A stretch of DNA of 64,000 nucleotides, from positions 30,041 to 94,040 of the forward strand of contig JAOZFN010000008.1 in NCBI GenBank assembly GCA_027492205.1, given 5' to 3'. The translations under genes were made by a program, and so were the position numbers. This DNA comes from Thermoproteota archaeon. GTDB lineage: Archaea; Korarchaeota; Korarchaeia; Korarchaeales; Korarchaeaceae. The stretch's first letter is position 1; the number at the start of each line of letters is the position of its first letter. Below, piece by piece: positions 9,339 to 36,296 of the stretch. The notes below the pieces were generated by a model. It had not been told where the DNA came from. It searched no databases and saw only the letters and a list, made by a program, of their open reading frames with translations.

Positions 9339-10733
9339 ATGGTCGCCTTGGAGCTGACAGAACAGATCCCGGCGCAGATCAGGCACCTGGCCAGGGGGGT
9401 GAGGGGGCAGGGAGGGCTAATCCTCGTGGCGCTGGGCAACTCTTCGGCAGTCCTGCTGGGGGCGCTGACGTGGCTCCTGCTCGCGAGGCTCCTGACGGTC
9501 GCCGACTATGGGAGAGTCAACTACCTGGCCTCTATCGCCATTTTGGCCTCTGGAGTCGCTTCCCTGGGAATGCCGGCCACCCTGCAGGCATACCTGCCAA
9601 GGGGGGACGAGCACATCTCTTCGGGAGCTGCGCTAACCGCCCTGTCCCTTGGGCTGGCCCTGGGGATCCCCCTTGCGGCCCTTCACCCCACCCTGCCGCT
9701 GATCACGGTGGGTTACGCCCTCTACACGGTAGCCACGAGCGAGAGGCTCGGGAGGAGGGACTACGGTGGGTACGCCCTCCTGCAGGTCCTGAGCAGGCTC
9801 GGGCTCCTGGCCTGGGTCCTCGCGGCCGTCCCGTCGCTCGGCGCGGATGGGGCGCTCCTGGGCTTCGCCCTAGTCAACCTCGCCTCCGCCTCCTGGATCC
9901 TCAGGGGGGTCGCCAGGCCCCGGGAGGGGCTCGCCTCGGTGAGGTCCCACATAAGGTTCTCGCTCGCGGCCCTGGCCATGGCCATGACGTCCTCGGCCGC
10001 CCTGAGGCTGGACAAGGTGCTGATCGGTTCCCTCTACGGGGAGGAGACCCTTGGGTACTACCAGCTCGCCTTCCAGTTCTACGCCGCTATTGCCGTCATT
10101 CCGGCCAGTCTGAGGAGCTACCTCCTCCCAGAGAGGTCTTCAGGCCGGGGAACCCGGAGGGCGGAGCTGATCGGGATTGCCCTCTCGGCGCTCGCGGCCT
10201 GCCTCGGGGCTCTCCTCTCGCCGCTGGTGATAAGGTCTCTCTTCCCCGACTTCTATCCCGAGAGCGCCGCGGCCGCCAGGATCGCCTCCCTCGCGGCCGT
10301 TCCGGGGGCCGCCTTCAGCGTCTGGTCGGCCGGGAAGCTGAGTCAGGAGAGGCCCACCCTGGTCCTGGCGGCCAACCTCCTCTCAATTTCCACCCTCGCG
10401 GCCTCCATAGCGGTCCTGGGAAGGTTGGCCGGGATCCCCGGTCTCGCCGCCTCCCTCCTGGTCTACAGATCCTCCGCCGCGGCCGCCGCGGGCGCGCTCG
10501 ACAGGCTCGAGTCGCGCGGGGCCCTGCTCCCGCGTGGCCAGCGCGGGAGGGGGATGTCTGACCGGGCCGCCTCAGCGGCCGGGGGGAAGTTGGCGGAGGC
10601 CGATGCTGGCCGGCAGAAACCGTCGCGCCGTCCGGGGGGGCCAACCCGGTCCCCCTCGGCGGTCCAGGTATGGGTTGCCGGGGGTGGCCCCCCACCCGGC
10701 ACTCCCCACAAGGGGCCCACCTCGGTCTCCTAG
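9339..10733 (+). CDS. oligosaccharide flippase (Wzx/RfbX family)
   Basis: LARLLTVADYG, RLDKVLIG..G...LGYYQLA, about 12 hydrophobic segments; C-terminal tail may be readthrough. Confidence 0.85.
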   Translation: MVALELTEQIPAQIRHLARGVRGQGGLILVALGNSSAVLLGALTWLLLARLLTVADYGRVNYLASIAILASGVASLGMPATLQAYLPRGDEHISSGAALTALSLGLALGIPLAALHPTLPLITVGYALYTVATSERLGRRDYGGYALLQVLSRLGLLAWVLAAVPSLGADGALLGFALVNLASASWILRGVARPREGLASVRSHIRFSLAALAMAMTSSAALRLDKVLIGSLYGEETLGYYQLAFQFYAAIAVIPASLRSYLLPERSSGRGTRRAELIGIALSALAACLGALLSPLVIRSLFPDFYPESAAAARIASLAAVPGAAFSVWSAGKLSQERPTLVLAANLLSISTLAASIAVLGRLAGIPGLAASLLVYRSSAAAAAGALDRLESRGALLPRGQRGRGMSDRAASAAGGKLAEADAGRQKPSRRPGGPTRSPSAVQVWVAGGGPPPGTPHKGPTSVS

Positions 10734-10745
10734 AGGGCCGGAGAA

Positions 10746-10858
10746 CGTTTCAAAATGTTTCTGAAACGGTACTCCACAAAAGACTTTTAATCAGCCCGCC
10801 TCGGTGGGTCCCACAGCTGGCTACCGCCGCCCGACGGGGCGGCGTAGCCAGGAGGTGA
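10746..10858 (+). promoter_or_regulatory. promoter and structured 5' leader of the probable S-layer gene
   Basis: CGTTTCA-N9-TGAAACG inverted repeat, AAAAGACTTTTAA BRE/TATA, 15-bp hairpin 10817-10851, then GGAGGTGA SD. Confidence 0.7.
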
Positions 10859-10863
10859 AAGAG

Positions 10864-13398
10864 ATGAAGAGATACGCGATATTTGCTGGGGTGCTGCTGG
10901 CCGTCCTGGCCCTCACCATGGTGCCGGGCGGCGTCTACGCGGTTCCCCCCGCGCCCGCAGAGCCCTCCACCGTCTGGAGCGATCCAGCAGATTGGTACAT
11001 GACCGTCCAGGGCCTGCTCGACAGCGACTTCTACGCCCTTTACCCCTTCGAGCACGACAAGAGCCTGAAAATCGGGTTCAGCAAGTACGGCGAGATGATA
11101 AACGGCGTTGAGAACGTTGGCCTCGAGTACTGGACCGTCGACCCCTTCGCCCCGCCGGCGGGCAGCGACCTCGGCAGCGTCCCCAAGAACCTCTGGCTCC
11201 AGGGCTGGCTCATCAACATAACCTACACCCACGTGACGTTCGGAAGCAGGAACGTCTGGGCCATGGCCCAGTTCTCCGACGCCGACTCCTGGGGAGGCCC
11301 CTGGATCAGGGTCGACTTCCCCGGCGACAACGACTCGACCTACGGCCCTGAGGACCCGAGGGATCCCGGCTACATCCAGGACGAGACCCCGTACATGGCC
11401 TCCGGCCTGGTCCACGGCGGCAGGAAGACCAACGGCACCGCCATAACCTACCCGATCAAGGTGCTCTACGCCGGCCCCAGGAAGTTCATAGCGGTCCTGA
11501 CCACCGACCTCTACGACCACATCGGCTACCAGACCGGCGACACCTCCAGCGACGTGCCCCTCGTGAGGATAGTCTTCACCATAATCTTCAACAAGGTCAA
11601 GAAGCAGGTCATAATACTGAAGGACATAAAGAGCATCATACCCGACAAGACGATGATCGGCCAGATGTTCGTCCAGTTCAGCAACAGGGGAGAGGTCGAC
11701 CTGGGCAACGAGGACGTCGGCTACAAGGCCTACGCCCACTTCTACACGGCTGGAACCTGCGGAGCTGAGGACGCCTCGAGTGAAGGTCAGACCACGGTTT
11801 ACGGGACCTCCTGGGAGCTCGGGCAGACGGCCTCCCCCAGCTCGGCCACGTGCTACGGGCCCGAGCCCAACAGCGAGCCGGACACCTTCGACGTGGCCCA
11901 GGTGATCAACCCGAACGTCCAGCCATCCGGAGTGGTTTGGTACGCCGCCTTCTGGCCCAGCCTCTCGGACTGGACCATCGACGGCTGGCCGATGTACTGG
12001 CGCTCCATCGACGCAGGCGACAAGCACTACATCGACCTGGCGACCGCCACGCCGCCCGAGCCGGAGATACCCTACTACATAGGCGAGTGGGACTTCTACC
12101 TCGACGACGTCACGGGCAACAAGGTCCAGTTCAGGGGAGTCACGGTCTACGGGGTCGTGGACAAGCACGACGCCGACGACGCCAACATGGGGGCCGGCCA
12201 CTTGAACGTCATAGACAGGGAGGCCATCAAGTACCTCCTCCAGGAGGTCTTCAACCCGTGGGACCTCAGGAAGGCCCTGAAGAACCCGAGCGACGACGAC
12301 TCGACCAAGCTCAGCAGGTGGGTCGAGTTCTTCACCATCGACGACGTGAAGAACGGTGAGAACATAACGCTGTCCGGGGCGCCGGAGTATGGAGACTGGT
12401 ACGCCTACTCGGACTTCCCGGAGAGGCTCGTGCTGATATGCGACGGCTCGGCGACCCTGCTCGAGCGCGACTCTAACTACACCGTCTATCCAGGGTACGA
12501 GAACATAACGCTACGCTCACCCGTGGTCTCGGCGATGGCCGATGGATGCATCCTCAAGGTGCTCTACTCGACCAAGGAGAACTACGACGGCGACACCTAC
12601 TCCGAGGGCAGGTACGAGTGGATAGTGGTCGGCAGGGAGACCAAGGACGGCAAGCTCGTGCCCTCAGCCGCCACGCTCAGCGCCGCCATAGTGAGCGCCG
12701 CCGTGAAGAACAAGGGCTTCGAGACCTGGTACATGGGCATGGACATCCCGTTCCAGAGACTGCCATACGTCATGTCCAACTTCGGCTCCCCGTACACGGA
12801 CAAGGAGGACTTCTACTTCTACGGCGACCAGGGAGGAAGGCCCGCCCTCAAGGACCACTGGTGCAACCCGTTCGCCCACCCGATCCCCGTGGCCAGCGCC
12901 AACCTCATAGCCATAGGAGGTCCGCTCGCAAACGTCCTGACGGAGTACGTCAACGAGTTCGTGCCGGCCATCTACCTCAGCGGCCAGATAGCCAACGGGC
13001 TCAACGGCCACGTCGACCCCGACCTTGAGGGCAAGGTCCTGGCCAGCACCTGCTGGAGCAGGAACGCCTACAAGAACGAGGGCGACGTCCACTACGCCGT
13101 GATCGCCACCTACAAGGACCTCAACGGCACCGTGATCCTGGAGATCTGGGGCTTCAAGGCCGAGGACACCTACTGGGCCGCAGACTGGTTCCACGACTTC
13201 TGGCTACTCCCAGACTACAAAGAGTATAGCCTGCAGAACATCAAGAGCGGCATAACGGCCATAATACTGGAGCTCGACTACAGCGAGTACTCGACCAACC
13301 ACTACCCGGACACCAGGATAGTCGAGTGGCTCGGCACCATCAGCGAGACCACCTGGCCTGCTGCTGAGATTCAGCAGCCGCCGCACCCCGACCCGTGA
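10864..13398 (+). CDS. large secreted glycoprotein, probable S-layer protein
   Basis: Sec signal peptide MKRYAIF..., seven N-x-S/T sequons, S-layer C-domain-like NLIAIGGPLANVLTEY, strong C-ending codon bias, perfect SD and own terminator. Confidence 0.7.
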   Translation: MKRYAIFAGVLLAVLALTMVPGGVYAVPPAPAEPSTVWSDPADWYMTVQGLLDSDFYALYPFEHDKSLKIGFSKYGEMINGVENVGLEYWTVDPFAPPAGSDLGSVPKNLWLQGWLINITYTHVTFGSRNVWAMAQFSDADSWGGPWIRVDFPGDNDSTYGPEDPRDPGYIQDETPYMASGLVHGGRKTNGTAITYPIKVLYAGPRKFIAVLTTDLYDHIGYQTGDTSSDVPLVRIVFTIIFNKVKKQVIILKDIKSIIPDKTMIGQMFVQFSNRGEVDLGNEDVGYKAYAHFYTAGTCGAEDASSEGQTTVYGTSWELGQTASPSSATCYGPEPNSEPDTFDVAQVINPNVQPSGVVWYAAFWPSLSDWTIDGWPMYWRSIDAGDKHYIDLATATPPEPEIPYYIGEWDFYLDDVTGNKVQFRGVTVYGVVDKHDADDANMGAGHLNVIDREAIKYLLQEVFNPWDLRKALKNPSDDDSTKLSRWVEFFTIDDVKNGENITLSGAPEYGDWYAYSDFPERLVLICDGSATLLERDSNYTVYPGYENITLRSPVVSAMADGCILKVLYSTKENYDGDTYSEGRYEWIVVGRETKDGKLVPSAATLSAAIVSAAVKNKGFETWYMGMDIPFQRLPYVMSNFGSPYTDKEDFYFYGDQGGRPALKDHWCNPFAHPIPVASANLIAIGGPLANVLTEYVNEFVPAIYLSGQIANGLNGHVDPDLEGKVLASTCWSRNAYKNEGDVHYAVIATYKDLNGTVILEIWGFKAEDTYWAADWFHDFWLLPDYKEYSLQNIKSGITAIILELDYSEYSTNHYPDTRIVEWLGTISETTWPAAEIQQPPHPDP

Positions 13399-13420
13399 GG
13401 TATCACAGGGGAACTCTCCC

Positions 13421-13581: not shown

Positions 13582-14748
13582 TCACAGTCCCCTCGCGCCG
13601 AGGATCGGGGCGCCCTGCGAGGACCCGACCACCTCGAGGTACACGGACAGCACCATCCCCGCGATCCTGGACCAGTCGAACTGCCAGGGCGGATCGGCGG
13701 TCACCCCACTGTCCAAGAGTCCGAGGGCCTCCCTGATGGCGGCCGATATCGAGCCGGGCTCGACCGAGTCGATCCTCGCCCAGAGGGGGTACCCCCTCAG
13801 GGCGTCTATGGCCCCGCCCACTGGCGTGGCCGCTATGGCCAGCCCGGCGGCCATGGCCTCCACCAGGGCGAGGCCGAGCCCCTCGGCCCTCGCCGGGTTC
13901 ACGAAAACGTCGGCGGCCGCGAACAGCTCGTGGACCCTGTCCGCGGGGACCCAGGGGAGGACGACGCCCGCCCCCCCGCCCTCGACTATCCTCCTGACCT
14001 CCCCCCTCAGGTACCCGTCCCCCGCGATCACGAAGAAGATATCGTCCTTCTCCCTCCTGAGCCTCGCGGCGGCCAGGGCCAGCTCGAGCGAGCCCTTGAC
14101 GTCGACCAGTCTACCGGCGTAGAGGACTATCTTCGCCTCCTGCGGGAGGCCGAGCCTCTCCCTGATCTCCGCCCTCCTCCTTCGGGCCTCTTGGAACTTT
14201 GTGACGTCGACGCCGCCCGGTATGACCCTGACGCTCCCCGCGCCGTACCTCCTCACGTAGTCGGCCACGTGCCCCGATATTGCGATCACGGCGTCGACCC
14301 TCCCCAGCAGCCACCTGAGGACCGTCCTGTTGAAGGCCTCCTCCAGGAGGCTCGCCCCGCCCCCCGGGTGGAGGGCGTACGTCCCGTGGACGGTTAGTAC
14401 CGTGGGGTAGTCCCCCAGGAGCAGGGCGGAGATCCAGGTGGTGGGGAAGTGGTGGCCGTGGACGTGCACCACGTCGGGGTCGAAGGACCTGACGGCGCCC
14501 ACCAGCCTGTCCGGCCTGACGGGGATTCGGAGGCTCCTCAGGGTCTTTAAGACCAGTCCGGGTGGGGAGACGCAGCGGACCCCCGAGAATGGCGGGCCCT
14601 CGGATAGGAGGCCCTCGCTCCGTTGGCCACAACAGCCCACCACTAGCACGTTGCAGTTCCTCGACAGGGCGCGGGAGAGCCCCCAGACGTGTCTTGCAAT
14701 CCCTCCCCAATCCGGCGGGTAGAAAGGGGTCACCTGGACGACCCTCAA
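13582..14748 (-). CDS. glycosyltransferase family 4
   Basis: FYPP..GG...H, PDVVHVH, AGRLVDVKG, EGLGLALVEAMAAG. Confidence 0.93.
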   Translation of the reverse strand: MRVVQVTPFYPPDWGGIARHVWGLSRALSRNCNVLVVGCCGQRSEGLLSEGPPFSGVRCVSPPGLVLKTLRSLRIPVRPDRLVGAVRSFDPDVVHVHGHHFPTTWISALLLGDYPTVLTVHGTYALHPGGGASLLEEAFNRTVLRWLLGRVDAVIAISGHVADYVRRYGAGSVRVIPGGVDVTKFQEARRRRAEIRERLGLPQEAKIVLYAGRLVDVKGSLELALAAARLRREKDDIFFVIAGDGYLRGEVRRIVEGGGAGVVLPWVPADRVHELFAAADVFVNPARAEGLGLALVEAMAAGLAIAATPVGGAIDALRGYPLWARIDSVEPGSISAAIREALGLLDSGVTADPPWQFDWSRIAGMVLSVYLEVVGSSQGAPILGARGL

Positions 14749-14788
14749 CTCAATCCCCCTCACCCACGACAGATGGCCGCCTAATCAA

Positions 14789-16267
14789 TTATCTCAACCC
14801 CAGCCTGGCCTTAATCAACCCCAACAGGAGGGACCTCCTCTCCAGCTTGTCCGGAAGAGATGCCCTCCCGCTCCCCTGAGCGTATAGGTCTCTCCCCTCC
14901 ATGTATGCCGGGGGGGCCAGCCCCAGCATGCCGAGCGCGGTTGGCGTTACGTCCTCGACCCGGGCGTCCCCGTCAACCTCTAGCCTTTCGGAAGCTATCA
15001 AGACACCATAGAGCTCATGACTCCCCCCACAGACCAGGGGACTGGTCAACTTTCCATCGAGAGTCAGTCCCGGTCGAATCACGAAGTCCGGCTCGATCTC
15101 GATGACGAGGTCAGGTCCCAGCCCGACGCGAGGACCTGAGTATAGGTCTCTCGGATCGTGGATGTCCCTAACTATCTTAAGGCCCTCCCTCTCCCCCTCG
15201 GCCTCAAGGGCCCTGGCGATCTTGAGGGCCTCGCCGCTCATGGGGCTCCAGGGACCCCTCCCCGAGATCGCCACAAACCTGCCGCCTATCCCCATCGTCA
15301 CTCCATCTCTCCCCTGAGAGCCGAATTCCTCCCTGAAGTGCATCGAGACCCCGAGCCGGGAGGCGGCCCTGAGCAGCTTGGGCAGGGCGGCCCTCGCCAG
15401 GCTGCTCGAATCGAACAGGTATCTGCCCAGCCCCGCCAGCCAGGATCCCAGGCCCCCCCTGATTCCAGAGTACAGGCCCGAGTGAATCATCCAGTTGAGC
15501 AGGAGAAGGGACCGCCGCGAGCCGTAGAACCCGTGATCTGACACCACCAGGAGGTGCTCGTACTCTACCCACTCCAGGGCCTCCTCGATCATGGACTCCA
15601 CGGCCTCGTAAGTCATCATCACGTGTGGGCCAGGTTCTCCTGCCATCCAGAAAAGATGGGACGCCCTGTCCGACACGGTGAATACCAGCGCGGCCAAGTC
15701 CCAGCTCCTTCCATCCAGCGCCCTCCTGAAGACCTCAAGCTTCTGCTTCTCAAGGTTTACGGCCTCCTCGATTGCCCTCTCTGGTCTATCTCCGTGAAGC
15801 ACGAAGGGATCGCCCGGGAGGTCGGGTACGTAGCCCCTTGGGATGATCTTATCCTCCCCCGGTGGGAAGACTATCCCACTCGAGGTCGGCGCTGGGAGGC
15901 CTGACACCAACCTCCCTAGCAGCGGCGTCGGCGGCCACGTCATGGGGACGTTCACTACTACGCTCTTCATGCCCAAGTACGAGAGGATCTCCCAGAGCGT
16001 GGGGACCCTGAGGCTCAGGCTCGAGACCAGCCCCCCCTTGCGGTCGGAGAACTGATACACCCCGTGTCTCCCGGGCCCGGTCCCCGTGAAGATGCTGGAC
16101 CATGCCGACGCGCTGTTTGGGGGTATCGTGGATCTGAGCCTAGCCAGGGTGCCAGACCTGGACGCCTCACCCAGCGGCCCATCCGACCTGGAAAGGTAAC
16201 GCCTAGCGGCCTCGTATTCCATTCCATCTATCCCGACGACTAGGAGCCTAACGTTGGACTTCCCCAT
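14789..16267 (-). CDS. alkaline phosphatase/NPP superfamily protein 1 (COG3379-like, Ser nucleophile)
   Basis: VVGIDG, LRSTIPPNSASAW..FTG..PG.HG, DRASH, SDHGF, GSH; no signal peptide. Confidence 0.9.
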   Translation of the reverse strand: MGKSNVRLLVVGIDGMEYEAARRYLSRSDGPLGEASRSGTLARLRSTIPPNSASAWSSIFTGTGPGRHGVYQFSDRKGGLVSSLSLRVPTLWEILSYLGMKSVVVNVPMTWPPTPLLGRLVSGLPAPTSSGIVFPPGEDKIIPRGYVPDLPGDPFVLHGDRPERAIEEAVNLEKQKLEVFRRALDGRSWDLAALVFTVSDRASHLFWMAGEPGPHVMMTYEAVESMIEEALEWVEYEHLLVVSDHGFYGSRRSLLLLNWMIHSGLYSGIRGGLGSWLAGLGRYLFDSSSLARAALPKLLRAASRLGVSMHFREEFGSQGRDGVTMGIGGRFVAISGRGPWSPMSGEALKIARALEAEGEREGLKIVRDIHDPRDLYSGPRVGLGPDLVIEIEPDFVIRPGLTLDGKLTSPLVCGGSHELYGVLIASERLEVDGDARVEDVTPTALGMLGLAPPAYMEGRDLYAQGSGRASLPDKLERRSLLLGLIKARLGLR

Positions 16268-16411
16268 AGCGAGGAGCTCCCACCCACTCACAATTTAAGC
16301 TGCCTCGCCCCTCTGCGCCTCGAGCACGCTCAGCGGGACGGTCAGACGTGCAACGGACGGGAAAGTTTATCTGGCCTCCGTCAGAAGGCCCACCGAGGAG
16401 TCTTGAAGGGA

Positions 16412-17941
16412 ATGAAGGCTCTACTGATCGTGCTGGACGGCCTATCCGTTGAGGTCGTGGAGAGGGGCCTGCGGGAGGGGAGGCTCCCAACCCTCGAGAG
16501 ACTGGGGGGGGTTGGGGCGACGGGCATACTTCGCTCCGCCGTGCCCCCGGATACCGCTGCCGCCATGGCCTCCCTGCTAACCGGGTCCGGCCCCGGGAGG
16601 CACGGGGTCTTTTCTCTCCTCATACCAGAGGCCAGGAACGGGCTGCTCAGGGTGAGGCCGGCCCAATACGCTGACATAAGGGTACCCACCCTGTTTGACT
16701 ACTCCGCCCGCACTCGAACCTCCATGGCGGCCTTCGGGATTCCCCTCCTCAGCCCGGTCCCAGAGCCCCCGGGGGGGTTCGCGGTGCCGGGCTTTGCTTC
16801 GGCCCCCGGGTCGAAGGCCCGGCCGGCCTGGGTCGACGAGTGGCTTGAGGATGCTGGCTTTGAGGACGACGTCCCAAGAAGCTTCTACGGCCTTGATCCA
16901 CACGATCAGGCTCGGATCTTGAGGGAGAGGATGAGGTTGACCGTTGACTTGTTCCTCCAGCTGGTCGAGGGGCTCAAGTCCCCCCCAAGGATCTCCATCC
17001 TCTGGCTTCCGGAGACGGACCGGGCAGGCCACACAATCTGGGATCACCGGGAACTCATGCTGAAAGTGTACGAAGAAGCGGACAGGGTGGTCTCCAGGCT
17101 GGTCGATCACTATGGTCTAGATGAGACCGTCATTGTCGTCACGGGCGATCATGGGTTCACCTCCAGACTCTCAGAGTTCTTCCCGAACTATCTCCTCCTA
17201 AGACACGGCCTCCTCAAGCTCAGGGGAAAGATCCTCCCTGCCCTGAAGAGGATCACATCTCTGCTAGCCGAGTGGCTCGTTGAGACCTCAAGGGCGGTTT
17301 GGAACCTGGCAATCGGCAAGGGGTTCATATCCGAGAGGGAGAGGGAGAGACTGGCCATAAGGCTGGCTAGCCGGCTGGTGTTGGACTACCCAGACATCGA
17401 CCTCTCCAAATCTCTGGCGTTTTCCATCTCAGACCTGGCCCCCTACGGAATGATCTACACCCCCCGGGACATCCTAAACCCACCCGTGGGGGAGGATCGT
17501 CTGAGGGAGGAGCAGGACCTCCTCTCTAGACTTAAGGAGATAGAGGGGCTCGAGCGCTTCGTGGACGAGCTGATACCAGGGAGTCGGGTATATGGGACGT
17601 CCTGTCCCGGGGCACCGGCTATACTCTTCAAGACCGCCAGGGGTTACAGCCCGGTCGGTAGGCTGTCTGCCAGCGTGCGAGGCCCCTCGAGGGCGTCATC
17701 AGGCGGAATGCACGACATTATCTCCCCCATATTCATTGCGGGGCCGGGAGTCCCTGCCGGGAGGCTCGACCGCGTCGTGGGGATAGAGGATGTCTTTCCG
17801 ACCCTGCTATCGCTCGCGGGTCTCCCGCTCTGGAGGGGGCTGCAGGGCAGGCCCGTGCTGGGTCAGGCCGAGGGGGAGGTAGACCTCGCCCGGGTGGCGG
17901 CGAGCAGGGCGATTAGGAGGAGGCTCAGGCCCAGGAGGTGA
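16412..17941 (+). CDS. alkaline phosphatase/NPP superfamily protein 2
   Basis: IVLDG, LRSAVPPDTAAA..LLTG..PG.HG, TDRAGH, GDHGF, GMH; no signal peptide. Confidence 0.9.
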   Translation: MKALLIVLDGLSVEVVERGLREGRLPTLERLGGVGATGILRSAVPPDTAAAMASLLTGSGPGRHGVFSLLIPEARNGLLRVRPAQYADIRVPTLFDYSARTRTSMAAFGIPLLSPVPEPPGGFAVPGFASAPGSKARPAWVDEWLEDAGFEDDVPRSFYGLDPHDQARILRERMRLTVDLFLQLVEGLKSPPRISILWLPETDRAGHTIWDHRELMLKVYEEADRVVSRLVDHYGLDETVIVVTGDHGFTSRLSEFFPNYLLLRHGLLKLRGKILPALKRITSLLAEWLVETSRAVWNLAIGKGFISERERERLAIRLASRLVLDYPDIDLSKSLAFSISDLAPYGMIYTPRDILNPPVGEDRLREEQDLLSRLKEIEGLERFVDELIPGSRVYGTSCPGAPAILFKTARGYSPVGRLSASVRGPSRASSGGMHDIISPIFIAGPGVPAGRLDRVVGIEDVFPTLLSLAGLPLWRGLQGRPVLGQAEGEVDLARVAASRAIRRRLRPRR

Positions 17942-28768: not shown

Positions 28769-29323
28769 TCAGGCCTTCGTGTATATCTCTATTCCCAACC
28801 TCTCAGACGCCTTGACGGCCGACTCCTCGGCGTACGGCGTCACCAGGATGAGCCTGGAGGGCCTCCTGCCGGTGGCCCGCTGGTAGAGTTCTGCCTTCCT
28901 CCTGAATTCGTAAACGTCCGACGGCCTCGCGTGGGCCGTGATTTCGATGAGGAGGACCCTCCCGTCCTTGACCGCCACGTCCACCTCCACGGGACTCGGG
29001 TAGCCGTACACGACGCCCTCCTCGTCGAAGAACTCCCACCTCTCCACCTCCAACCCGAGTTCCCTGCCGAGAATCCCCCGCAGCCCCTGCCTGAAGGCCT
29101 CCTCAGTGAGGAGGCCCCAGCGAGCTCCAAGGGCGGATATGTGTCTCTCGACCAGCTCGAAGCCCTTCACCATGTCCTCCCTGAGCCTGGCCATCTCCGC
29201 CAGGTGCCCGTCGAGCCTCCGCAGGATCTCGCTAACTCCAATCAGCCCGGCCACCGCGTATCTGAACTCCTCGTCTCTCTTCAGCAGATCCAGGATCTTC
29301 CTCTTGAGTTCGACCTCCTCCAT
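28769..29323 (-). CDS. coiled-coil PD-(D/E)XK nuclease-like protein (DUF3782/DUF1626-like)
   Basis: LLKRDEEFRYAVAGLIG, ALGARWG..EEAFR, VEVDVAV..LIEIT, KAELY. Confidence 0.85.
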   Translation of the reverse strand: MEEVELKRKILDLLKRDEEFRYAVAGLIGVSEILRRLDGHLAEMARLREDMVKGFELVERHISALGARWGLLTEEAFRQGLRGILGRELGLEVERWEFFDEEGVVYGYPSPVEVDVAVKDGRVLLIEITAHARPSDVYEFRRKAELYQRATGRRPSRLILVTPYAEESAVKASERLGIEIYTKA

Positions 29324-29589
29324 GGGGCTAACGCTCCCACGCTCGTTGATGAAGACCCAGGGCGGCAAAAAATTTTGGCATCTGGCTCCGGTTTGCCTGG
29401 GCCAGGCGGTCCCTCTGCAGGTAGCCCGGGTTCCCTAGCATGCCCCACTTCTGGCCCTAACTGGGGATCTCAAGCCTACATTCCTCGCCGCGCACGCGCA
29501 TTCGCCACAAGAGACCGCCGCTTCCAACCGGATCAAGAAGGCTCCACGAGATTCATTGAATCGCCTCCCGAGGAGTTTACGCAAACGAG

Positions 29590-30202
29590 AGCACCCTGAC
29601 CACAGCCAAAGCCCAAGAGGAAGTGTGAGCAGCCCTATAATCGCTCAAGAGCCTCCCTGCGAAACCTTCCCACTGAGAACGCGGACAGTGGTGTTGGGGC
29701 CACCGCTCCAACGGCCAGGGCTCCCCAGATCCCCGCATAAAACACCCTCGTTCCCATGGTCCCGTATGGGAGGAGGATTTTGCGCCAGGAGAAACTCCCC
29801 GCCCCTCCGTAGCCAGAGAGGATCAGGAGACCATGCCCGTCACGAGCAGACCTATGTACAGCTTGATCACCCTCATTGTAAGTTTGAGGGAGATTACCAC
29901 GGCTGAAGCAGACCCGCGAATGCTGCAGGCGGCCAAGACGAGGGCTACCCCTCAGATCCCTTGACCTCGGGTTGAGATCCACGTTTCCGAGTTCGTGGTG
30001 AAGGAAGCCGGCGGCCACTTCGGCCAGGAACTCTGAGGAGAGTATCCCCGAGGCGGGCACCCACGGATCCAGGCCCATGACCAAGAGGGAGGGAGAGCGT
30101 GCGTGGTGCCGTAGCCCATCCCCAGCGTCGATCCATGTACTCACAGATGAATGCTAGCGCGGCCAGAGTCAAGATAAGGCACGTGGGTGTCGCCACCGCC
30201 AC
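29590..30202 (-). pseudogene. TauE/SafE sulfite-exporter family, frameshifted
   Basis: Frames join to EYMD(S)TLGMGYGTT..SPSLLVMG...GFLHHELGNVD; several frameshifts and stops. Confidence 0.75.
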
Positions 30203-30225
30203 TCGGGAGGGGTCGCATCTCCCGC

Positions 30226-30786
30226 TCAGGCGATTAGACCCATACCCCGCAGGGCCCCCAGGACGACCTCCGCCTCCTGCTCGGGAGTCATCGTCTCCGA
30301 GTCCACCACAACCTCCGGGCTCTCGGGCTCTTCATACGCGTCCTGCACCCCGGTCATGTTCCCCAGCTCTCCCCTGATGGCCCTCCTATACAGACCCTTC
30401 GGGTCCCTCCTCATGGCCGTCTCAAGCGAGCACCTCACGTAGACCTCGACGAACCTCAGCCCCTCCACCTCGACTATCTCCCTGACCTCCCTCCTGACAC
30501 TCCTGTACGGCGAGACGAACGAGGCCACTACCGCCACTCCGTTTCTGGCCAGGAGCTTTGAGACGTAGGCCACCCTCCTGAGGTGTCGCTCCCTGTCCTC
30601 CCTGCTGAATCCGGCCTCCGGGCTGAGCCACCTCCTGACCTCGTCGCCGTCTAGCACCTCGACGCGCCAGCCCATCTCCCTCAGCTTCCTGGCCAGAACC
30701 CCCGCGAGCGTGGTCTTCCCTGCCGCCGGGAGACCCGTCAGCCAGACCACGAAACCCTCCCTAGGGGATCCGGGGCCCTCCGCCAC
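30226..30786 (-). CDS. cysC: adenylyl-sulfate (APS) kinase
   Basis: WLTGLPAAGKTT, LDGD.VR, GFSREDR, VSPY, RDPKGLY, TGVQDAYEEP. Confidence 0.97.
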   Translation of the reverse strand: MAEGPGSPREGFVVWLTGLPAAGKTTLAGVLARKLREMGWRVEVLDGDEVRRWLSPEAGFSREDRERHLRRVAYVSKLLARNGVAVVASFVSPYRSVRREVREIVEVEGLRFVEVYVRCSLETAMRRDPKGLYRRAIRGELGNMTGVQDAYEEPESPEVVVDSETMTPEQEAEVVLGALRGMGLIA

Positions 30787-30801
30787 CTCCAGGCACCTCC
30801 C

Positions 30802-32199
30802 TCAGCTCACGTCGACGAGGGGTTCCCCCCTCATTCCTCCGGGAATTTCCATCCCCACCAGCGACAGGATCGTGGGCGCCACGTCGTAGATCGTGGCTCC
30901 GAGCTCCCTGGGCTCCACCCTGTCCTCCGGATCGCGTATCAGATAGATCCCCTCCCAGTCGTGGACCGCGTCGTCGGGGCCGGTGTCGTTCTCCGGGAGG
31001 AACCACTCTCCGTGGCCCATCGTGCCGGCCGCGCGCCAGCTCAGGTCCCCGAAGTAGACCATGAGGTCCGGGGCGTCCCCCCTCACCTCAGGGTAGATCT
31101 CGGCCGGCCTGTGGGCCTCCACGCCGAGGCTCCCGCCCCCGGGAACCCGGACCCTCCTCAGGTCGTCCACCAGCTGGGCCAGGGTGGACTCGAAGTCCTC
31201 CGGGCTCACCCTACCCTGGGGCTCCCTCCCCCTGAGGTTCACGAAGATCCTGGAGTAGTAGCCGCCCCACCCCCAGGCCACCGTCCTCTCCCAGTTCACC
31301 TTGACCTTCGCTAGTCCCGTCTGCTCCCTGGGCCTCTCCTCCAGGGCCAGGTAGCCGTTGTCCGCCAGCCACTCGTTGATCGCGAAGGCGCCGGTCATAG
31401 CCTTTGCCCCGTGGTCCGAGACGACGAGTATTGAGGCGTCCTTGGCGGCCCGAGCGAGCCTCCCTATTCCCTCGTCCAGGAGGCGGTAGTAGCGCTCGGC
31501 CACGTCGGCGAACTCGCTGTCCGGGACGTGCCTCGGGTGATCTGGGTCGAAGAACTTCCAGAAGGCGTGGTGGAGCCTGTCCAGTCCGATCTCGACGTAC
31601 CACATCAGGTCCCACCTCTTCGCCCTCGCCAGGTGCTCGGCGACCCGGAGGTGCTGCCTGGTCATCTCGAAGAGCCTCTCCACCAGGGGGCCCCTGTCCT
31701 CGACCCTGAACTCCACGTCGTGTGTGAAGGTTCCCCCCGCGACCCTCTCGACCTCCAGCCTGAGCCACGGCGGGTGGGTGTAGTTCTTGGCCGTCGAGGG
31801 TGTGTGGAAGTCGCTGATCACCCACCCCTGAACCTTGAGGGGAGGGTAGGAGGGAGGGAAGGCTATCAGCAGGGCCTTCTTCCCCTCCCCGGCGGTGCGA
31901 TCCCACACCGCCGGCCTCGTCAGGTTCCTGGAGGTCACTAGGTAGTACTCCCTGTACTCGCCGGGCCTCCTGTGCCTGAAGCCGTACATCCCCAGCTCCC
32001 CCGGAGTGAGGCCCGTGGCCATCACGGCCCAGGCGGGTACGGTTATGGGCGGGTGGCAGCTCCTCAGGGGGCCGTACCTGGCCCCGTCCATCAGCTCTGA
32101 GAGGTTCGGCATTTCGGGCAGGAACCTCTCGAACGCCAGCGACGGCGGCGCCGAGTCCAGCCCTATGACCATGACCCTCTCTCCAGCCACCTCAATCAC
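30802..32199 (-). CDS. alkaline phosphatase/NPP superfamily protein 3 (inside the sat-cysC operon)
   Basis: IGLDSA, LRSCHPPITVPAW, LDRLHH, SDHGA, ENDTGPDDAVH. Confidence 0.92.
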   Translation of the reverse strand: MIEVAGERVMVIGLDSAPPSLAFERFLPEMPNLSELMDGARYGPLRSCHPPITVPAWAVMATGLTPGELGMYGFRHRRPGEYREYYLVTSRNLTRPAVWDRTAGEGKKALLIAFPPSYPPLKVQGWVISDFHTPSTAKNYTHPPWLRLEVERVAGGTFTHDVEFRVEDRGPLVERLFEMTRQHLRVAEHLARAKRWDLMWYVEIGLDRLHHAFWKFFDPDHPRHVPDSEFADVAERYYRLLDEGIGRLARAAKDASILVVSDHGAKAMTGAFAINEWLADNGYLALEERPREQTGLAKVKVNWERTVAWGWGGYYSRIFVNLRGREPQGRVSPEDFESTLAQLVDDLRRVRVPGGGSLGVEAHRPAEIYPEVRGDAPDLMVYFGDLSWRAAGTMGHGEWFLPENDTGPDDAVHDWEGIYLIRDPEDRVEPRELGATIYDVAPTILSLVGMEIPGGMRGEPLVDVS

Positions 32200-33226
32200 T
32201 CCCCCCTCCTTCGAGGACGGCGGACCTCAGCCAGTCGAGGGCGCGGCGGGCGAACTCTCTCGCCTCCGGCTCGGGCAGGATGACGCCGACGGACTCCCGC
32301 TTCCCGCCCGCATTGTACCCGCTAGACCTCGCCATCTCGGCCAGGGACGTGAGGTCCAGGTCGAGCCCGTGGACCCTGGAGTATACCTGGGCGTACCCCC
32401 TCCTCCAGCGAGAGTTGATCGCGAGCACCGCGACCCGATCCCTGGACCAGGCGAACCTCCGCCCCACGGTGGAGATGAGGAGGTGGGGGGACTCGAACTC
32501 CACGTAGACGACGCTGCCGAAGTCTTCCACCCTGGCCTCTCTCAAGACCCTCTCGACCTCGGCCTCGGCGGACCTGTGCTTTATTATCCACTCCCCCATG
32601 CTCAGGAGCGATCTCGGATCCCCGTACCCCCTGCCGAGCGCGAAGACCGCGTCCCTGACGCCCTCCCTGTCCCCGACCCTGTAGTTCGCGTCGACGAGCT
32701 CGGCCAGCCTCTCGAGCTCCTCAACCCCCATTCCCAGCGAATCCAGCACTCTCAGCACCTCCCCGTAGACGGGGTGAGATCGGAGCGTGGGGCCCAGGTC
32801 GCCCGCGATGCCCAGGATCGATCGAAGGTCGGGCCGAGCTCCCATCAGGCGCGTGAGGTGCCAGCTCGCGGAGGGCTGACCCACGTCGACCAGCGAGATC
32901 CAGGAGGCCGGGAGGCGCCCCCTCGGCCTGACGTGGTGATCCACCAGCACCACCCTGCCGGCCCCGACCGCGGAGGCGGCCCTCTCCACGGACTCGACGG
33001 GCAGCGCCACGTCGAGCACCATCAGCGTGTCGAACGTCCCCAGGTCTCGCATCTCGTCGGCCGCCCGAGAGTCTAGCCAGTAGAACCCCAGCGGCGGCAC
33101 GTAGAGCTCGGCGTGGTCTCCGAGCCAGTCGAGGATCAGGCTCGCGCTGGCGACGCCGTCGGCGTCCCAGTGGTGGAGGACGAGGGTGGCTCCGAGTTCT
33201 TCCGGATTCGGCAGCCTCGACTCCAT
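32192..33226 (-). CDS. DHH-family phosphoesterase (probable PAP phosphatase)
   Basis: HHWDADG, VLD, VDHH, GIAGD, NAGGK. Confidence 0.88.
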   Translation of the reverse strand: MESRLPNPEELGATLVLHHWDADGVASASLILDWLGDHAELYVPPLGFYWLDSRAADEMRDLGTFDTLMVLDVALPVESVERAASAVGAGRVVLVDHHVRPRGRLPASWISLVDVGQPSASWHLTRLMGARPDLRSILGIAGDLGPTLRSHPVYGEVLRVLDSLGMGVEELERLAELVDANYRVGDREGVRDAVFALGRGYGDPRSLLSMGEWIIKHRSAEAEVERVLREARVEDFGSVVYVEFESPHLLISTVGRRFAWSRDRVAVLAINSRWRRGYAQVYSRVHGLDLDLTSLAEMARSSGYNAGGKRESVGVILPEPEAREFARRALDWLRSAVLEGGGSD

Positions 33227-33235
33227 CCCCTCCCC

Positions 33236-34405
33236 TCACCTGACGAAGGGGTCGTCGAAGCTCAGGATCGCCTCCGCCACCTCGGGCCTCATCACCTCCG
33301 GCGGCGGGACCTCCCCCCTCCCTATGAGCTCGCGTATCTTCGTCCCGCTGAACCTGATCCTATCGCTCTCGGGGTGGGGGCAGGTCCTCTCGTTGGCCAG
33401 CCCGCCGCACCTCCTGCAGTAGAAGAACTCCCTGAAGAACAGGGGTGTGATCCCGAGGTCCGGGAACTCCCTGAATATCTCCTGCGCGGCGTAGGGGGGG
33501 TAGAAGTTGCCGACGCCCGCGTGGTCCCTGCCGACGATGAAGTGGGTGCACCCGAAGTTCTTCCTCATGATGGCGTGGTGCACGGCCTCCCTCGGGCCGG
33601 CGTACCTCATCTCGTACCTTAGGATCGCGAGCACGGCGGTGTCCCTCGGGTAGTAGTGCTCTATCAGGGTCCTGTAGGCCTCGAGGATCACGTCGTCCCT
33701 GAAGTCTCCGGGCTTCTTCCTCCCGACGACGGGGTTGATGAACACGCCGTCGACGAATGCCAGGGCCGTCTTCTGCAGCTCCTCGTGTCCCCTGTGAGGG
33801 GCGTTCCTGGTCTGAAAGCCGACGACGGTCTTCCAGCCCTTCTCCTTGAAGAGGACGCGGGTCTCGACGGGCCAGAGGGTGTACCTCTCGTAGGGGTTAG
33901 GCACGGAGCCCACCAGCGTTACCCTCCCGCCCAGCAGGAGGTCTCCCATCTCGAGCGCGCGTCGGACTCCTGGGTGATCGGGGCTGTCGGTCCCGAACAC
34001 CGATAGGGCGGCCCGCCTCTTGTCGTACATGTAGATCTCCTCCAACTCCATCAGCGCGATGGGCCTTCCGTCGAGGGTCAGGAGAACCTCATCGCCCTCC
34101 GACACGTCGACCAGGCTGCCCTCCCCCACGTCCAGGACTATGGGGAGAGTCCAGGGCACGTCGCTCGCCAACCTCATCCTGGAGAGGCAGGACTCGAAGT
34201 CCTCGCTCAGCATGAACCCCTCCAGGGGGCTGTAGACTCCCCTCGCTATGTTCTCGACCTCAATGGCCTTCTCCACGCTCATCGGTATCTGTTGGAATTC
34301 GGCCGCCTCGGCGAGTATCTTTTTCCTCCTGGAGTCGGAGGCCACCCTGTTCACCAGCCTGCCGCCGTGCGGCCTGGACACCATGCCAGATCGCCTCTGG
34401 CTCAA
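33236..34405 (-). CDS. sat: sulfate adenylyltransferase (ATP sulfurylase)
   Basis: PHGG.LV, YSPLEGFM, FQTRNAPHRGHE, YAGPREAVHHA..RKNFGCTHFIVGRDHAGVG, MRPEV; start may be ATG at 34384. Confidence 0.98.
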   Translation of the reverse strand: MSQRRSGMVSRPHGGRLVNRVASDSRRKKILAEAAEFQQIPMSVEKAIEVENIARGVYSPLEGFMLSEDFESCLSRMRLASDVPWTLPIVLDVGEGSLVDVSEGDEVLLTLDGRPIALMELEEIYMYDKRRAALSVFGTDSPDHPGVRRALEMGDLLLGGRVTLVGSVPNPYERYTLWPVETRVLFKEKGWKTVVGFQTRNAPHRGHEELQKTALAFVDGVFINPVVGRKKPGDFRDDVILEAYRTLIEHYYPRDTAVLAILRYEMRYAGPREAVHHAIMRKNFGCTHFIVGRDHAGVGNFYPPYAAQEIFREFPDLGITPLFFREFFYCRRCGGLANERTCPHPESDRIRFSGTKIRELIGRGEVPPPEVMRPEVAEAILSFDDPFVR

Positions 34406-34620
34406 TCAAGGTACCCGAGGGCCCTGAGCCTCCGCTTGATGCGCTCCTCGTCCTCCCTGGTGAAGTCGAGCTTCGACTCCTCGTACGACGCGACGAGTTC
34501 TCTCAGCACGTACGTGACGTAGTCACTGACTGAGGAGAAGCCAGTTCCCTCAATCATGTGCTTCACCTTCTCATAGAGCTGGATGGGTATGGAAATCGTC
34601 GTATAGCGCCTTCTCGACAC
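34402..34620 (-). CDS. small CopG/RHH protein with RLRALGYLD tail
   Basis: YTTISIP..LYEKV..IEGTGFSSVSDYVTYVLRE; stop overlaps the sat start. Confidence 0.9.
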   Translation of the reverse strand: MSRRRYTTISIPIQLYEKVKHMIEGTGFSSVSDYVTYVLRELVASYEESKLDFTREDEERIKRRLRALGYLD

Positions 34621-34636
34621 GGCTGGAACGTGAATC

Positions 34637-34670
34637 CATGTTAATTAATATGCATTGCGCCTTAATTGCA
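34637..34670. promoter_or_regulatory. AT-rich divergent promoter with near-palindrome
   Basis: CATGTTAATTAATATG (one mismatch) and a second CTTAATTG between divergent genes. Confidence 0.5.
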
Positions 34671-34721
34671 GCCGCCACAAGGACCCCGAAACCTCCCCGT
34701 CACACTTATACCGGCAGGTAT

Positions 34722-36296
34722 ATGTGGCGTGTGGAGGGATGGCGGATCAATAGGACCCTGGTCGTCGGCCTCGACGGGCTCGACTGGAATCTGGTCTTCG
34801 ACTGGTCCTCCAAGTGGTCCCTGTCTAACTTCAAGAGGCTCACCGAGGAGGGGGCTGGCGGCGTACTCGAGAGCACCCTCCCCTCGACCACCCCCCCGGG
34901 CTGGACCTCGATCACCACGGGAGTCAATCCGGGCAAGCACGGGCTCTTCGACTTCTTCCGCGTCATAAGACGTGAAGGCTCCTGGACCTTTGAACTGGTG
35001 AACTCCACCCACAAGCGCGCCCCCGAGCTCTGGGACTACGTCGAAGGATCTTTCGTGATCAACCTGCCCGTCTCATACCCTCCCCGCCCCATAAGGGGCG
35101 TCATGATCACGGGCATGCTCACCCCATCCAGGGGGGCCAACTTCGCCTTCCCCCCCGAACTCAGAGACTGGCTCCTCGCCCGGTTCCCCGACTACAGGTT
35201 TGAGCTGCAGTGGAGTGAGTACGGGAACAGGAGGGAGGAGTTCATGCGCGACCTCACCAGGATGACGCAGCAGAGGATCCAGCTGTTCTGGGAGCTGTTT
35301 GAGAGGGACTGGCGACTGATGTTCTTCGTGATCGCAGGCACGGACAGGATACAGCACCTCATGTGGGGCACGCCCGAGATGAGGGAGTACTTCCGCATGG
35401 TGGACGACTTCCTGGGGGAGGTGATGGACCGTGTTCGGAGGGCCGGCGTCAATCTCTTTGTGGTCTCCGACCACGGATTCGGCCCGATACACAAGCTCCT
35501 CTACGTGAACTCGTTCCTCCATCGTGAGGGCTACCTGAGGCTCAGGGAGGGCCGGGCAGCCGGCGCCATGAGGGCCGTCGGCCTGGACAGGGAGAGGCTG
35601 AGGGGCCTGCTCTATAGGACCGGCCTGATCAGGCTGTACAGGAGGCTCTCCCCCGGGGTTGCGGAGGCCCTTAAGGCGGCGATCCCCGGTGAGTCCAACC
35701 CTGCGGTCGACTTCGACCTCGACAGGACGAGGGCCTTCATGTACGGGATGGGAGGGGTCTACCTCTCGGCTGAGGGGGAGGAGAGGCGGAGGCTGGTGGA
35801 GGAGCTGAGGGAGGGCCTCCTCACCCTGAGGGATCCGGACACGGGTGGGCGCGTCGTCGAGGCGGTCTACGAGAGGGGGGAGATATACAGCGGGCCTTTC
35901 GTGGGAGCGGCCCCCGACCTGATTCTGGTGCCGGCAGAAGGTTACTCGGTGGAGAGGCATGTGAGGCCCCGCCTCGTTGAGGTGTCGAGGGTCAAGAGGG
36001 CCGACCACAGGAGGACCGGGGTCATCCTCGCCTACGGCCCCGATGTGGAGCCCGGCGCTAGGGTCGACGCCTCGGTCTACGACGTCGCGCCGACGGTCCT
36101 GCACATGCTCGGGCTCCCGGTCCCGACCAACGTGGACGGCAGGGTCCTCCTCGAGCTGTTCTCACCGTCGTCCGAGCCCAGGAGGAGAGAGGTGTCCTTC
36201 AGGGACCCGCTTCGAACGCCCACCCCCAGAGGGGAGGTGAGCCTGGCGGTCAGGAGAGCCCTGGCTAAGAGGGGGACGCGAACGCCCGACCCGTAG
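34722..36296 (+). CDS. alkaline phosphatase/NPP superfamily protein 4
   Basis: VGLDG, LESTLPSTTPPGWTSITTGVNPGKHG, TDRIQH, SDHGF, ADH; exact start uncertain. Confidence 0.92.
   Translation: MWRVEGWRINRTLVVGLDGLDWNLVFDWSSKWSLSNFKRLTEEGAGGVLESTLPSTTPPGWTSITTGVNPGKHGLFDFFRVIRREGSWTFELVNSTHKRAPELWDYVEGSFVINLPVSYPPRPIRGVMITGMLTPSRGANFAFPPELRDWLLARFPDYRFELQWSEYGNRREEFMRDLTRMTQQRIQLFWELFERDWRLMFFVIAGTDRIQHLMWGTPEMREYFRMVDDFLGEVMDRVRRAGVNLFVVSDHGFGPIHKLLYVNSFLHREGYLRLREGRAAGAMRAVGLDRERLRGLLYRTGLIRLYRRLSPGVAEALKAAIPGESNPAVDFDLDRTRAFMYGMGGVYLSAEGEERRRLVEELREGLLTLRDPDTGGRVVEAVYERGEIYSGPFVGAAPDLILVPAEGYSVERHVRPRLVEVSRVKRADHRRTGVILAYGPDVEPGARVDASVYDVAPTVLHMLGLPVPTNVDGRVLLELFSPSSEPRRREVSFRDPLRTPTPRGEVSLAVRRALAKRGTRTPDP

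Follow-up and report, generated by a model that had tools for sequence, protein, structure and literature searches.

An activated-sulfate cassette and a sister family of NPP-type enzymes in a surface-glycan island of an archaeal genome

How does an archaeon use activated sulfate if its genome encodes the enzymes that make it but none that are recognised to consume it? The question is raised by a stretch of 64,000 nucleotides (the window, corresponding to C7:30041-94040) from an uncultured, heat-loving Thermoproteota archaeon of the GTDB lineage Korarchaeota, whose 96.4% complete genome (G000 in the following) comprises 1.94 Mb on 17 contigs. The window, with a G+C content of 65% and proteins that are not acidic, contains an operon for the synthesis of 3'-phosphoadenosine 5'-phosphosulfate (PAPS), four genes of the nucleotide pyrophosphatase/phosphodiesterase (NPP) family, referred to as NPP_A to NPP_D, and a set of genes for glycan assembly. 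We consider it well supported that the region constitutes a surface-glycan biosynthesis island joined to a dedicated PAPS factory. Across the phylum, the cassette is found among glycan genes, which makes sulfate esters of a surface glycan, as opposed to assimilation, the most probable destination of its product. To our knowledge, many archaea and bacteria harbour sat-cysC operons without a recognisable PAPS consumer. Sulfated surface glycans of archaea are known chemically, and the only enzymes we know of that sulfate them are those of Halobacterium (Agl30/Agl31).

Gene identities in the window were obtained from Pfam and NCBIfam scans, and genome-wide family searches covered the whole of G000 in six frames. 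For comparison, we used 43 species genomes of the phylum, which are mutually related so that counts of genomes are not independent. Evidence from beyond the phylum comes from metagenome contigs, on which the presence of PAPS genes can be judged for the available flank and not for the whole genome.

The PAPS cassette and the search for its consumer

The cassette is encoded on the minus strand and starts with the gene of an RHH/CopG-like regulator (34402-34620), whose match to RHH_1 (E = 0.0066) stays below the cut-off and whose position immediately upstream of sat is conserved in 11 related loci of the phylum, with identities of 53-93%. It overlaps by 4 nt with sat (33236-34405), coding for ATP sulfurylase (PF01747, E = 2e-93; PUA_2, E = 4e-49; NCBIfam NF003166, 527 bits), which is separated by 9 nt from a gene (32192-33226) for a DHH-family homologue of phosphatases acting on 3'-phosphoadenosine 5'-phosphate (PAP). 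This gene in turn overlaps by 8 nt with NPP_A (30802-32199; PF01663, E = 1e-40), a cassette-type enzyme of the COG3379/PF01663 family, and a gap of 15 nt leads to cysC (30226-30786), which codes for the kinase of adenosine 5'-phosphosulfate (APS; PF01583, E = 4e-57; TIGR00455, 205 bits). The operon ends with a TauE/TSUP permease pseudogene (29581-30205), which was recovered by tblastn with the TauE of the same genus (E = 6e-31) and which consists of pieces in three frames with about 50 residues deleted relative to the intact protein; in relatives, an intact TauE is found 3' of cysC. Family scans, coordinates and tblastn thus bear out the tightly packed order RHH-sat-DHH-NPP-cysC-TauE(pseudo) that a first-pass annotation of this DNA had proposed. 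Both sat and cysC are present in a single copy in G000. For positions 30226-36296, a look-up of sequencing runs listed no RNA run and, for DNA, only entries of a small share. Throughout the phylum, the core of the cassette is RHH-sat-NPP_A-cysC(-TauE), to which the DHH gene is added in G000 and G008, both of the own genus, and in no other genome.

That Sat and CysC make PAPS is well supported. The same holds, at the level of sequence, for the assignment of the DHH protein as a PAP-phosphatase homologue: its score of 27.1 bits against Pfam DHH lies under the cut-off of 28.1, and a comparison with PDB sequences identifies the PAP phosphatase from Methanothermococcus thermolithotrophicus (8A8K, E = 6.9e-26, residues 14-319) and no other solved structure at E ≤ 0.01. 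The presence of this homologue, which agrees with the removal of PAP that had been ascribed to it, implies a reaction that releases PAP.

A cassette of this gene order has already been published for Thermococcales. Work on Pyrococcus yayanosii describes a five-gene cluster of copG, ATP sulfurylase, DHH PAP phosphatase, type I phosphodiesterase/NPP and APS kinase genes with an adjoining DUF81/TauE gene (PYCH_17520-17570), of which the DHH PAP phosphatase was crystallised and assayed, while PYCH_17550 was speculated to degrade inorganic pyrophosphate (PPi) (PMC8268124). In a report on Thermococcus onnurineus, the corresponding genes are listed with TON_1704 as APS kinase, TON_1705 as pyrophosphatase, TON_1706 as PAP phosphatase and TON_1707 as ATP sulfurylase (PMC4463584, citing Lee et al. 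2009). The order copG/RHH-sat-DHH-NPP-cysC with an adjacent TauE is shared with G000, which differs from the Thermococcales cluster in having a TauE pseudogene, three extra NPP paralogues of a longer type and a glycan island.

By gene order, the position of NPP_A equals that of TON_1705 and PYCH_17550. Following what is cited on the counterpart in T. onnurineus, we regard NPP_A as a likely local pyrophosphatase, which would pull the unfavourable reaction catalysed by Sat. Such a helper makes sense in G000, where a membrane H+-pyrophosphatase is present and no soluble family I pyrophosphatase (PF00719) was found. The nearest named relative of NPP_A is a protein from Candidatus Korarchaeota (71% identity), and its homologues number more than 7900. 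This relationship and the non-acidic nature of the proteins led us to reject a haloarchaeal origin of the DNA. Defining as PAPS-positive those genomes that contain a true APS kinase and/or Sat, which applies to 20 of the 43 in the phylum, we detect the NPP_A type in 18 of these and in none of the 23 PAPS-negative genomes. The two PAPS-positive genomes without it are incomplete (86% and 71%), and the first of them (G015) carries cysC at the edge of a contig. In a FastTree phylogeny of 141 family members, which was built without an outgroup, in which several branches are long, NPP_C and NPP_D among them, and from which we claim no deep order, the NPP_A-type proteins form a single clade with a support of 100. 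The four NPP proteins are not one class, with NPP_A being of the cassette type and NPP_B, NPP_C and NPP_D belonging to a separate branch. In this respect, the earlier treatment of all of them as a single class of transferases is not supported, as NPP_A matches the Thermococcales cassette gene by its place in the order.

If PAPS is produced, which enzyme uses it? In G000, we found no member of the canonical sulfotransferase families Sulfotransfer_1 to _4 (PF13469, PF00685, PF03567 and PF17784), with PF19798, PF06990 and PF05935 lying outside of the search set. The search for PF09037 (Stf0) equally gave no match, which is uninformative since its control was silent as well. PAPS reductases (PF01507), sulfite reductases (PF01077, NIR_SIR) and sulfatases (PF00884) are likewise not detected in the genome. 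A tblastn search of G000 with the canonical sulfotransferase from G018, a related genome of the phylum, detected no homologue either (best E value 0.14). It is thus well supported that G000 does not contain a known route to reduce or to transfer activated sulfate. The absence of sulfotransferases, CysH and sulfite reductases, which had initially been described for the window, extends to the entire genome at the level of these family searches, and no canonical PAPS sink is seen.

A protein of about 560 residues matching PF01507 (PAPS_reduct) occurs in most genomes of the phylum, with or without an APS kinase, and the four PAPS-positive genomes of the own genus lack it. This distribution makes it improbable as a PAPS reductase of the pathway discussed here.

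The long-type NPP paralogues and their distribution

Besides NPP_A, three further genes of the NPP and alkaline phosphatase (AP) superfamily had been noted in the first-pass annotation as coding for proteins without signal peptides, and Pfam searches and an analysis of hydrophobic segments confirm this description. NPP_B (34722-36296, plus strand, with an alternative start at 34638; PF01663, E = 6e-42) is divergent from the promoter region of RHH-sat. The orthologue in G008 (87% identity) has its start at the site corresponding to position 34722, and the divergent arrangement of NPP_B and RHH-sat recurs in G031. NPP_C (14789-16291, minus strand; PF01663, E = 8e-20) is located upstream of a gene for a GT4 glycosyltransferase with a gap of 25 nt, and NPP_D (16403-17941, plus strand; PF01663, E = 1e-24) is divergent from NPP_C. 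A six-frame search places all four PF01663 genes of G000 in the window, within 21.5 kb. Their products score with 72-145 bits at a cut-off of 23 and share 23-29% pairwise identity; NPP_D in addition shows a match of 22.5 bits to the sulfatase family PF00884, which lies below the cut-off of 25. Neither a hydrophobic segment nor a signal peptide was detected in any of the four proteins, whose first β-strand, bearing a metal-binding aspartate, begins no more than about 15 residues from the N-terminus.

The residues D15, T53, D207, H211, D262, H263 and H413 (in the numbering of NPP_A) are kept in all four proteins, with a serine as nucleophile in NPP_C. These seven catalytic positions are preserved in 138 of the 141 family members, the nucleophile being a threonine in 114 and a serine in 27 cases. 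On the basis of NPP structures, we take the six aspartate and histidine columns to represent metal ligands, next to the threonine or serine nucleophile.

What distinguishes NPP_B, NPP_C and NPP_D from the cassette-bound enzyme is their C-terminus. The long-type proteins span about 500-560 residues and extend for about 45 residues more beyond the last conserved motif. In 72 of 101 complete metagenomic long-type members, the last 15 residues contain the motif 'L-x(1,2)-[LM]-G-Y', for which a fuller form reads 'E..[IV]..RL+.LGY[ILM]', and among the other 29, most terminate in a basic helix of a similar kind, which is the variant of the tail carried by NPP_B, NPP_C and NPP_D. The motif is found in none of 120 NPP_A homologues. 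A possible role of this tail would be in docking or membrane binding.

For NPP_D, the only one of the paralogues that was modelled, AlphaFold predicts a structure with a pLDDT of 84.4 and a C-terminal helix comprising residues 495-511. The best matching folds (2gsn, 1ei6, 3szy, 6ael and 5xwk, with E values around 1e-15, a TM-score of about 0.5-0.68 and a sequence identity of 11-17%) are those of Xanthomonas NPP, the phosphonoacetate hydrolase PhnA, ENPP1/3 and SPAP/PafA. With the classical NPPs, including the Xanthomonas enzyme, ENPP1-7 and PhnA, the proteins of G000 have in common the assignment to PF01663, a two-metal site and a threonine or serine nucleophile. They differ from the secreted or membrane-anchored ecto-NPPs in being cytoplasmic, and from classical NPPs in general by a helical insertion of about 50 residues, an extra C-terminal helix, and genomic partners that are glycosyltransferases and PAPS genes. 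We infer from these features that NPP_B, NPP_C and NPP_D are soluble two-metal enzymes, which employ a threonine or serine as nucleophile and which carry an additional helix at their C-terminus.

The long type is divided in the tree among many deep clades, with NPP_B next to orthologues from the same genus (86% and 69% identity) and NPP_D in a clade of six, two of which adjoin a canonical sulfotransferase gene. A word-based homologue search with NPP_D retrieved 14 proteins, and an atlas look-up returned generic PF01663 clusters only. Scanning genome contigs with a profile of a four-sequence alignment recovered solely the three loci from which the alignment had been built. Close relatives of the long type are found in the cultivable haloarchaea Halobaculum, Halorubrum and Halococcus, and the 120 top-ranking relatives of a long-type protein in haloarchaea carry without exception the name 'alkaline phosphatase family protein'. 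A relic of a long-type gene with six in-frame stops (G007:C18:16268-17179), which looks like a decayed copy, is located in a genome of the same order that contains neither sat nor cysC.

Over the 43 genomes of the phylum, the profile of the long type gives a bimodal distribution with full-length matches of at least 338 bits in 11 genomes and matches of 180-227 bits, which cover only the first 280 or so positions and represent the NPP_A type. The long type is present in 9 of the 20 PAPS-positive and in 2 of the 23 PAPS-negative genomes. One of the two PAPS-negative carriers (G024) is 70% complete and contains a canonical sulfotransferase, and its PAPS genes are probably unassembled. In five genomes (G000, G019, G031, G038 and G042), long-type genes are located within 10 kb of the cassette, usually together with GT4 genes.

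Canonical sulfotransferases are found in only 2 of the 43 genomes (G018 and G024), and in both of them the gene resides on the same strand directly upstream of an NPP_D-like gene. The NPP_D clade is thereby connected with sulfation by a route that does not involve sat and cysC. The operon combines a sugar epimerase/dehydratase, Sulfotransfer_1/3 and the NPP_D-like gene (L018 1839-5317 in G018, where the three genes follow in this order, and L019 3337-5821 in G024).

To look beyond the phylum, we analysed 80 metagenomic loci around NPP_B-like genes of 28-36% identity. Their flanks total 664,771 bases, with at least 5 kb on both sides in only 18 loci. PAPS genes, here Sat, CysC, an NPP_A of 45-46% identity or the cassette RHH, are present in 10 of the 80 flanks (L033, L040, L045, L053, L056, L062, L077, L078, L101 and L102), at a chance expectation that we roughly estimate to be well under one locus. 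Tandem arrays of two to four long-type paralogues are common in the metagenomic loci. A block consisting of an NPP_A-type gene, an open reading frame (ORF) of 351 residues, a long-type NPP and a GT4 gene was observed in L053 (3281-9421) and L062 (3955-12047); in L102 (6285-10392), a gene for a hexapeptide-repeat transferase takes the place of GT4 behind the first three genes. The 351-residue ORF encodes a GHMP kinase in L062, the only copy that was scanned, and a fused Sat-CysC gene is found upstream of the block in the same locus. The G+C content of these three contigs is 54-57%.

The surrounding glycan island

Genes for glycosyltransferases of the GT2 and GT4 families and for a flippase had been proposed in the vicinity of the cassette, and all three assignments hold in Pfam searches. 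The GT4 enzyme is encoded at 13582-14763 on the minus strand (Glyco_transf_4, E = 1e-29; Glycos_transf_1, E = 2e-23), and a GT4-like gene of 27% identity is located 12 kb beyond the region considered here (48227-49240, minus strand). The GT2 enzyme (25655-26599, plus strand; PF00535, E = 3e-27) carries C-terminal transmembrane segments at residues 238-258 and 269-295. The flippase is of the Wzx/Polysacc_synt type (9333-10733, plus strand; PF13440, E = 7e-9; PF01943, E = 2e-7), and its 72% identical orthologue in G008, a genome of the same genus, directly adjoins the PAPS cassette. A comparable environment is found across the phylum, where 16 related loci contain 107 ORFs at a distance of up to 6 kb from the cassette, among them seven GT4 enzymes, six sugar epimerases/dehydratases, six TauE permeases and three flippases.

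The region further encodes a possible surface protein of 864 residues (10804-13398, plus strand) with one N-terminal hydrophobic segment (residues 21-49), for which no Pfam or NCBIfam family was found over cut-off and whose match to S_layer_C (E = 0.036, 14.2 bits) is below the threshold of 23.9. It had been described as a sequon-rich secreted protein. The secreted type and seven sequons are retained in our analysis, the excess of latter being mild when compared to shuffled sequences (4.1 ± 1.8).

The island also contains adjacent genes for two giant multi-pass membrane proteins, paralogues of 40% identity. The first (17807-21349, minus strand; 1180 residues) has 12 N-terminal hydrophobic segments and one at the C-terminus, and the second (21358-25569, minus strand; 1403 residues) has a sequon-rich non-membrane part with 12 sequons compared to 4.1 ± 2.0 in shuffles. 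The term GT-C-like, used in the first-pass annotation, is a tentative label for these proteins. No Pfam or NCBIfam match was obtained for either, a profile search finds no PDB sequence at E ≤ 10, and a model of the N-terminal 600 residues reaches a pLDDT of only 49. As a lead only, the nearest clusters by language-model features carry DUF6541, DUF6077, DUF2298 and AftA_N. Homologues of the 1403-residue protein are encoded near the cassette or near long-type NPP genes in G008, G019 and G042. Between both giant genes, a tract of 246 nt is 98% identical (19213-19458 and 23367-23612), which looks like a recent gene conversion between tandem paralogues. The 3' ends of NPP_D and the oppositely oriented gene of the 1180-residue protein overlap by 135 nt (17807-17941); the last 50 or so residues of this protein are of low complexity, and its true stop may be located earlier.

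Just after the GT2 gene, a second small RHH paralogue (26846-27058, minus strand) shares 47% identity with the regulator of the cassette. Similar second RHH genes adjoin long-type NPP genes in L002 (8769-8960), L018 (6117-6326) and L019 (2786-2977), which may point to a pair of regulators serving the cassette and the glycan genes. Genes that are likely mobile or of a defence type are found between the glycan island and the PAPS cassette and on their flanks (27677-29368 and 36867-38475), namely a DUF3782/PD-(D/E)XK gene, a PIN gene and a HEPN/nucleotidyltransferase pair; for the first of these, at least seven more matches are spread over four other contigs.

The fate of the activated sulfate

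In the explanation that we favour, the substrates of NPP_B, NPP_C and NPP_D would be sugars linked to lipids or nucleotides, on which they would act at the cytoplasmic side of the membrane. At least one of the three enzymes would take up the sulfate of PAPS on its own nucleophile and pass it on from the sulfo-enzyme to a sugar in a ping-pong reaction, with PAP being released for the DHH enzyme. The sulfated glycan would then be flipped and attached on the outside. Apart from the transfer step, we have good confidence in this account. Taken as a whole, it stays somewhat below an even chance, and the proposal that at least one of the three long-type enzymes transfers sulfate is a tentative one. 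The sulfate transfer that the first-pass annotation had envisaged thus finds support in the production of PAPS, the lack of a known consumer, the glycan context and the precedent of an AP-type fold, and it is weakened by the small number of metagenomic flanks containing PAPS genes, by G012 and by the coexistence with a canonical sulfotransferase, which are discussed below.

The idea of a sulfotransferase with an AP fold in archaea is already published for another branch of the superfamily. In Halobacterium salinarum, Agl30 (VNG1056C) and Agl31 (VNG1057C) are described as N-glycan sulfotransferases of the AP superfamily, which deletion and heterologous expression identified as needed and sufficient for glycan sulfation; one of them is soluble, the other membrane-bound, and both are encoded among glycosylation genes (PMC11980604). 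The main text of that report does not mention PAPS and does not name the donor. Like the NPP proteins described here, Agl30 and Agl31 are members of the AP superfamily without the canonical sulfotransferase fold and belong to an archaeal glycosylation cluster. Their cluster is anchored by aglB, whereas AglB of G000 is encoded on another contig. A second link between archaeal glycosylation clusters and sulfate is provided by Agl7 (HVO_2046) of Haloferax volcanii, which is needed for the sulfation of a dolichol-phosphate-bound hexose (PMC3892788) and which defines genetically the sulfation of a lipid-linked sugar. The 120 best haloarchaeal matches to the long-type family include no protein of this name. 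In the literature searched, we did not find a description of a sulfotransferase of the NPP/COG3379 type or of a long-type family with the C-terminal signature.

Several observations weigh against a transfer of sulfate by the long-type enzymes, and many of them favour a different role. Agl30 and Agl31 are sulfatase-like, with sulfatases as their best structural matches, whereas the proteins of G000 belong to the NPP/PhnA branch, in a genome without PF00884. The nearest solved folds of NPP_D are all phosphodiesterases or phosphatases, with no sulfatases among them, and the literature searched contains no measured donor, acceptor or activity for a long-type member. NPP_B, NPP_C and NPP_D could be enzymes of glycan assembly that act on phosphodiester or pyrophosphate bonds and take no direct part in the transfer of sulfate. 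Trimming or recycling of nucleotide sugars, nucleoside diphosphates or lipid pyrophosphates would be possible tasks, as would moving a phospho-substituent via a phosphothreonine. On this view, PAPS would be consumed by an enzyme that is not recognisable from its sequence. Apart from the relationship of NPP_D to the phosphoryl-transfer enzymes NPP, PhnA, ENPP and PafA, this role would fit the sole activity cited for the wider family, which is the hydrolysis of P-O-P bonds (PMC4463584, PMC8268124).

It would equally fit the genomic neighbourhood. In 70 of the 80 metagenomic loci, no PAPS gene is present in the available flank, and the 146 immediate neighbours, which were collected from 70 of the 80 loci, are led by GT4 (16), GT2 (10) and flippases (9), followed by GT9 and radical SAM proteins (5 each), with GHMP kinases also being frequent. 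An APS kinase accounts for only three of these neighbours, and the 25 most frequent families of this census include none of sulfotransferases. In the phylum, G012 (91% complete, on four contigs) contains an NPP_D-like gene without sat or cysC and is a real exception to the link between the long type and PAPS. In the operons of G018 and G024, an NPP_D-like gene is kept beside a canonical sulfotransferase, which suggests a different and non-redundant job. Conversely, 11 of the 20 PAPS-positive genomes do not encode a long-type NPP. Among these, G004, G041 and G001 (90-94% complete) are also devoid of a canonical sulfotransferase and of a strong match to PF01507, and long-type NPPs are thus not the universal PAPS sink of the phylum.

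A role restricted to the chemistry of P-O bonds would in turn leave the PAPS made in G000 without a consumer, and it would not account for the occurrence of PAPS genes near long-type genes far above chance or for the enrichment of the long type in PAPS-positive genomes. The co-occurrence by which the sulfate-transfer proposal was to be judged holds in part, since it is evident in the phylum and in 10 metagenomic flanks and is not seen in the majority of flanks and in G012. We regard the assignment to phosphodiester or pyrophosphate chemistry as a serious possibility, short of being probable.

A second alternative assigns the consumption of PAPS or APS to NPP_A itself, either as a sulfotransferase or as an enzyme acting on the phosphosulfate anhydride, with the cited pyrophosphatase activity being a secondary one, directed at the similar P-O-P bond, and the long-type paralogues doing something else. 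The strict coupling of NPP_A to PAPS-positive genomes and its full set of catalytic residues would agree with such a function, and it is the only cassette-linked candidate in G004, G041 and G001. This assignment appears improbable in view of the T. onnurineus counterpart, which is cited as an inorganic pyrophosphatase (PMC4463584, PMC8268124), of the thermodynamics of the Sat reaction, which call for a helper that removes PPi in a genome without a soluble family I enzyme, and of the lack of the extra C-terminal helix and its tail motif.

Finally, the view that the cassette serves the assimilation of sulfur via reductases outside of current family models and that its proximity to glycan genes is incidental, which would agree with its description as part of assimilatory sulfate reduction (PMC8268124, PMC4463584) and with the origin of 8A8K, the nearest solved relative of the DHH protein, from an assimilatory pathway, is very improbable given the absence of PF01507 and PF01077 from G000, the occurrence of the PF01507 protein of about 560 residues independently of APS kinase and its absence from PAPS-positive members of the own genus, the glycan genes that repeatedly flank the cassette across genera, and the lack of an identified sulfotransferase or core enzyme for sulfite reduction in P. 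yayanosii (PMC8268124).

The locus thus separates a cassette-bound NPP, for which a plausible role as pyrophosphatase is published, from a larger sister family that is bound to glycan clusters. With its own C-terminal signature and with relatives in cultivable haloarchaea, this long-type family provides the sharper target. That its members are PAPS-dependent sulfotransferases, forming a class spread widely over archaea and bacteria and operating via a covalent sulfo-enzyme intermediate on sugars linked to lipids or nucleotides, is a speculative extension that we consider rather unlikely. If true, it would define a second and mechanistically distinct class of sulfotransferases, it would explain the many microbial PAPS operons that are not accompanied by a canonical sulfotransferase, and thousands of proteins now listed as 'alkaline phosphatase family proteins' would receive a different annotation. 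Should the long-type enzymes not be sulfotransferases, they would still represent a common step of prokaryotic glycan assembly.

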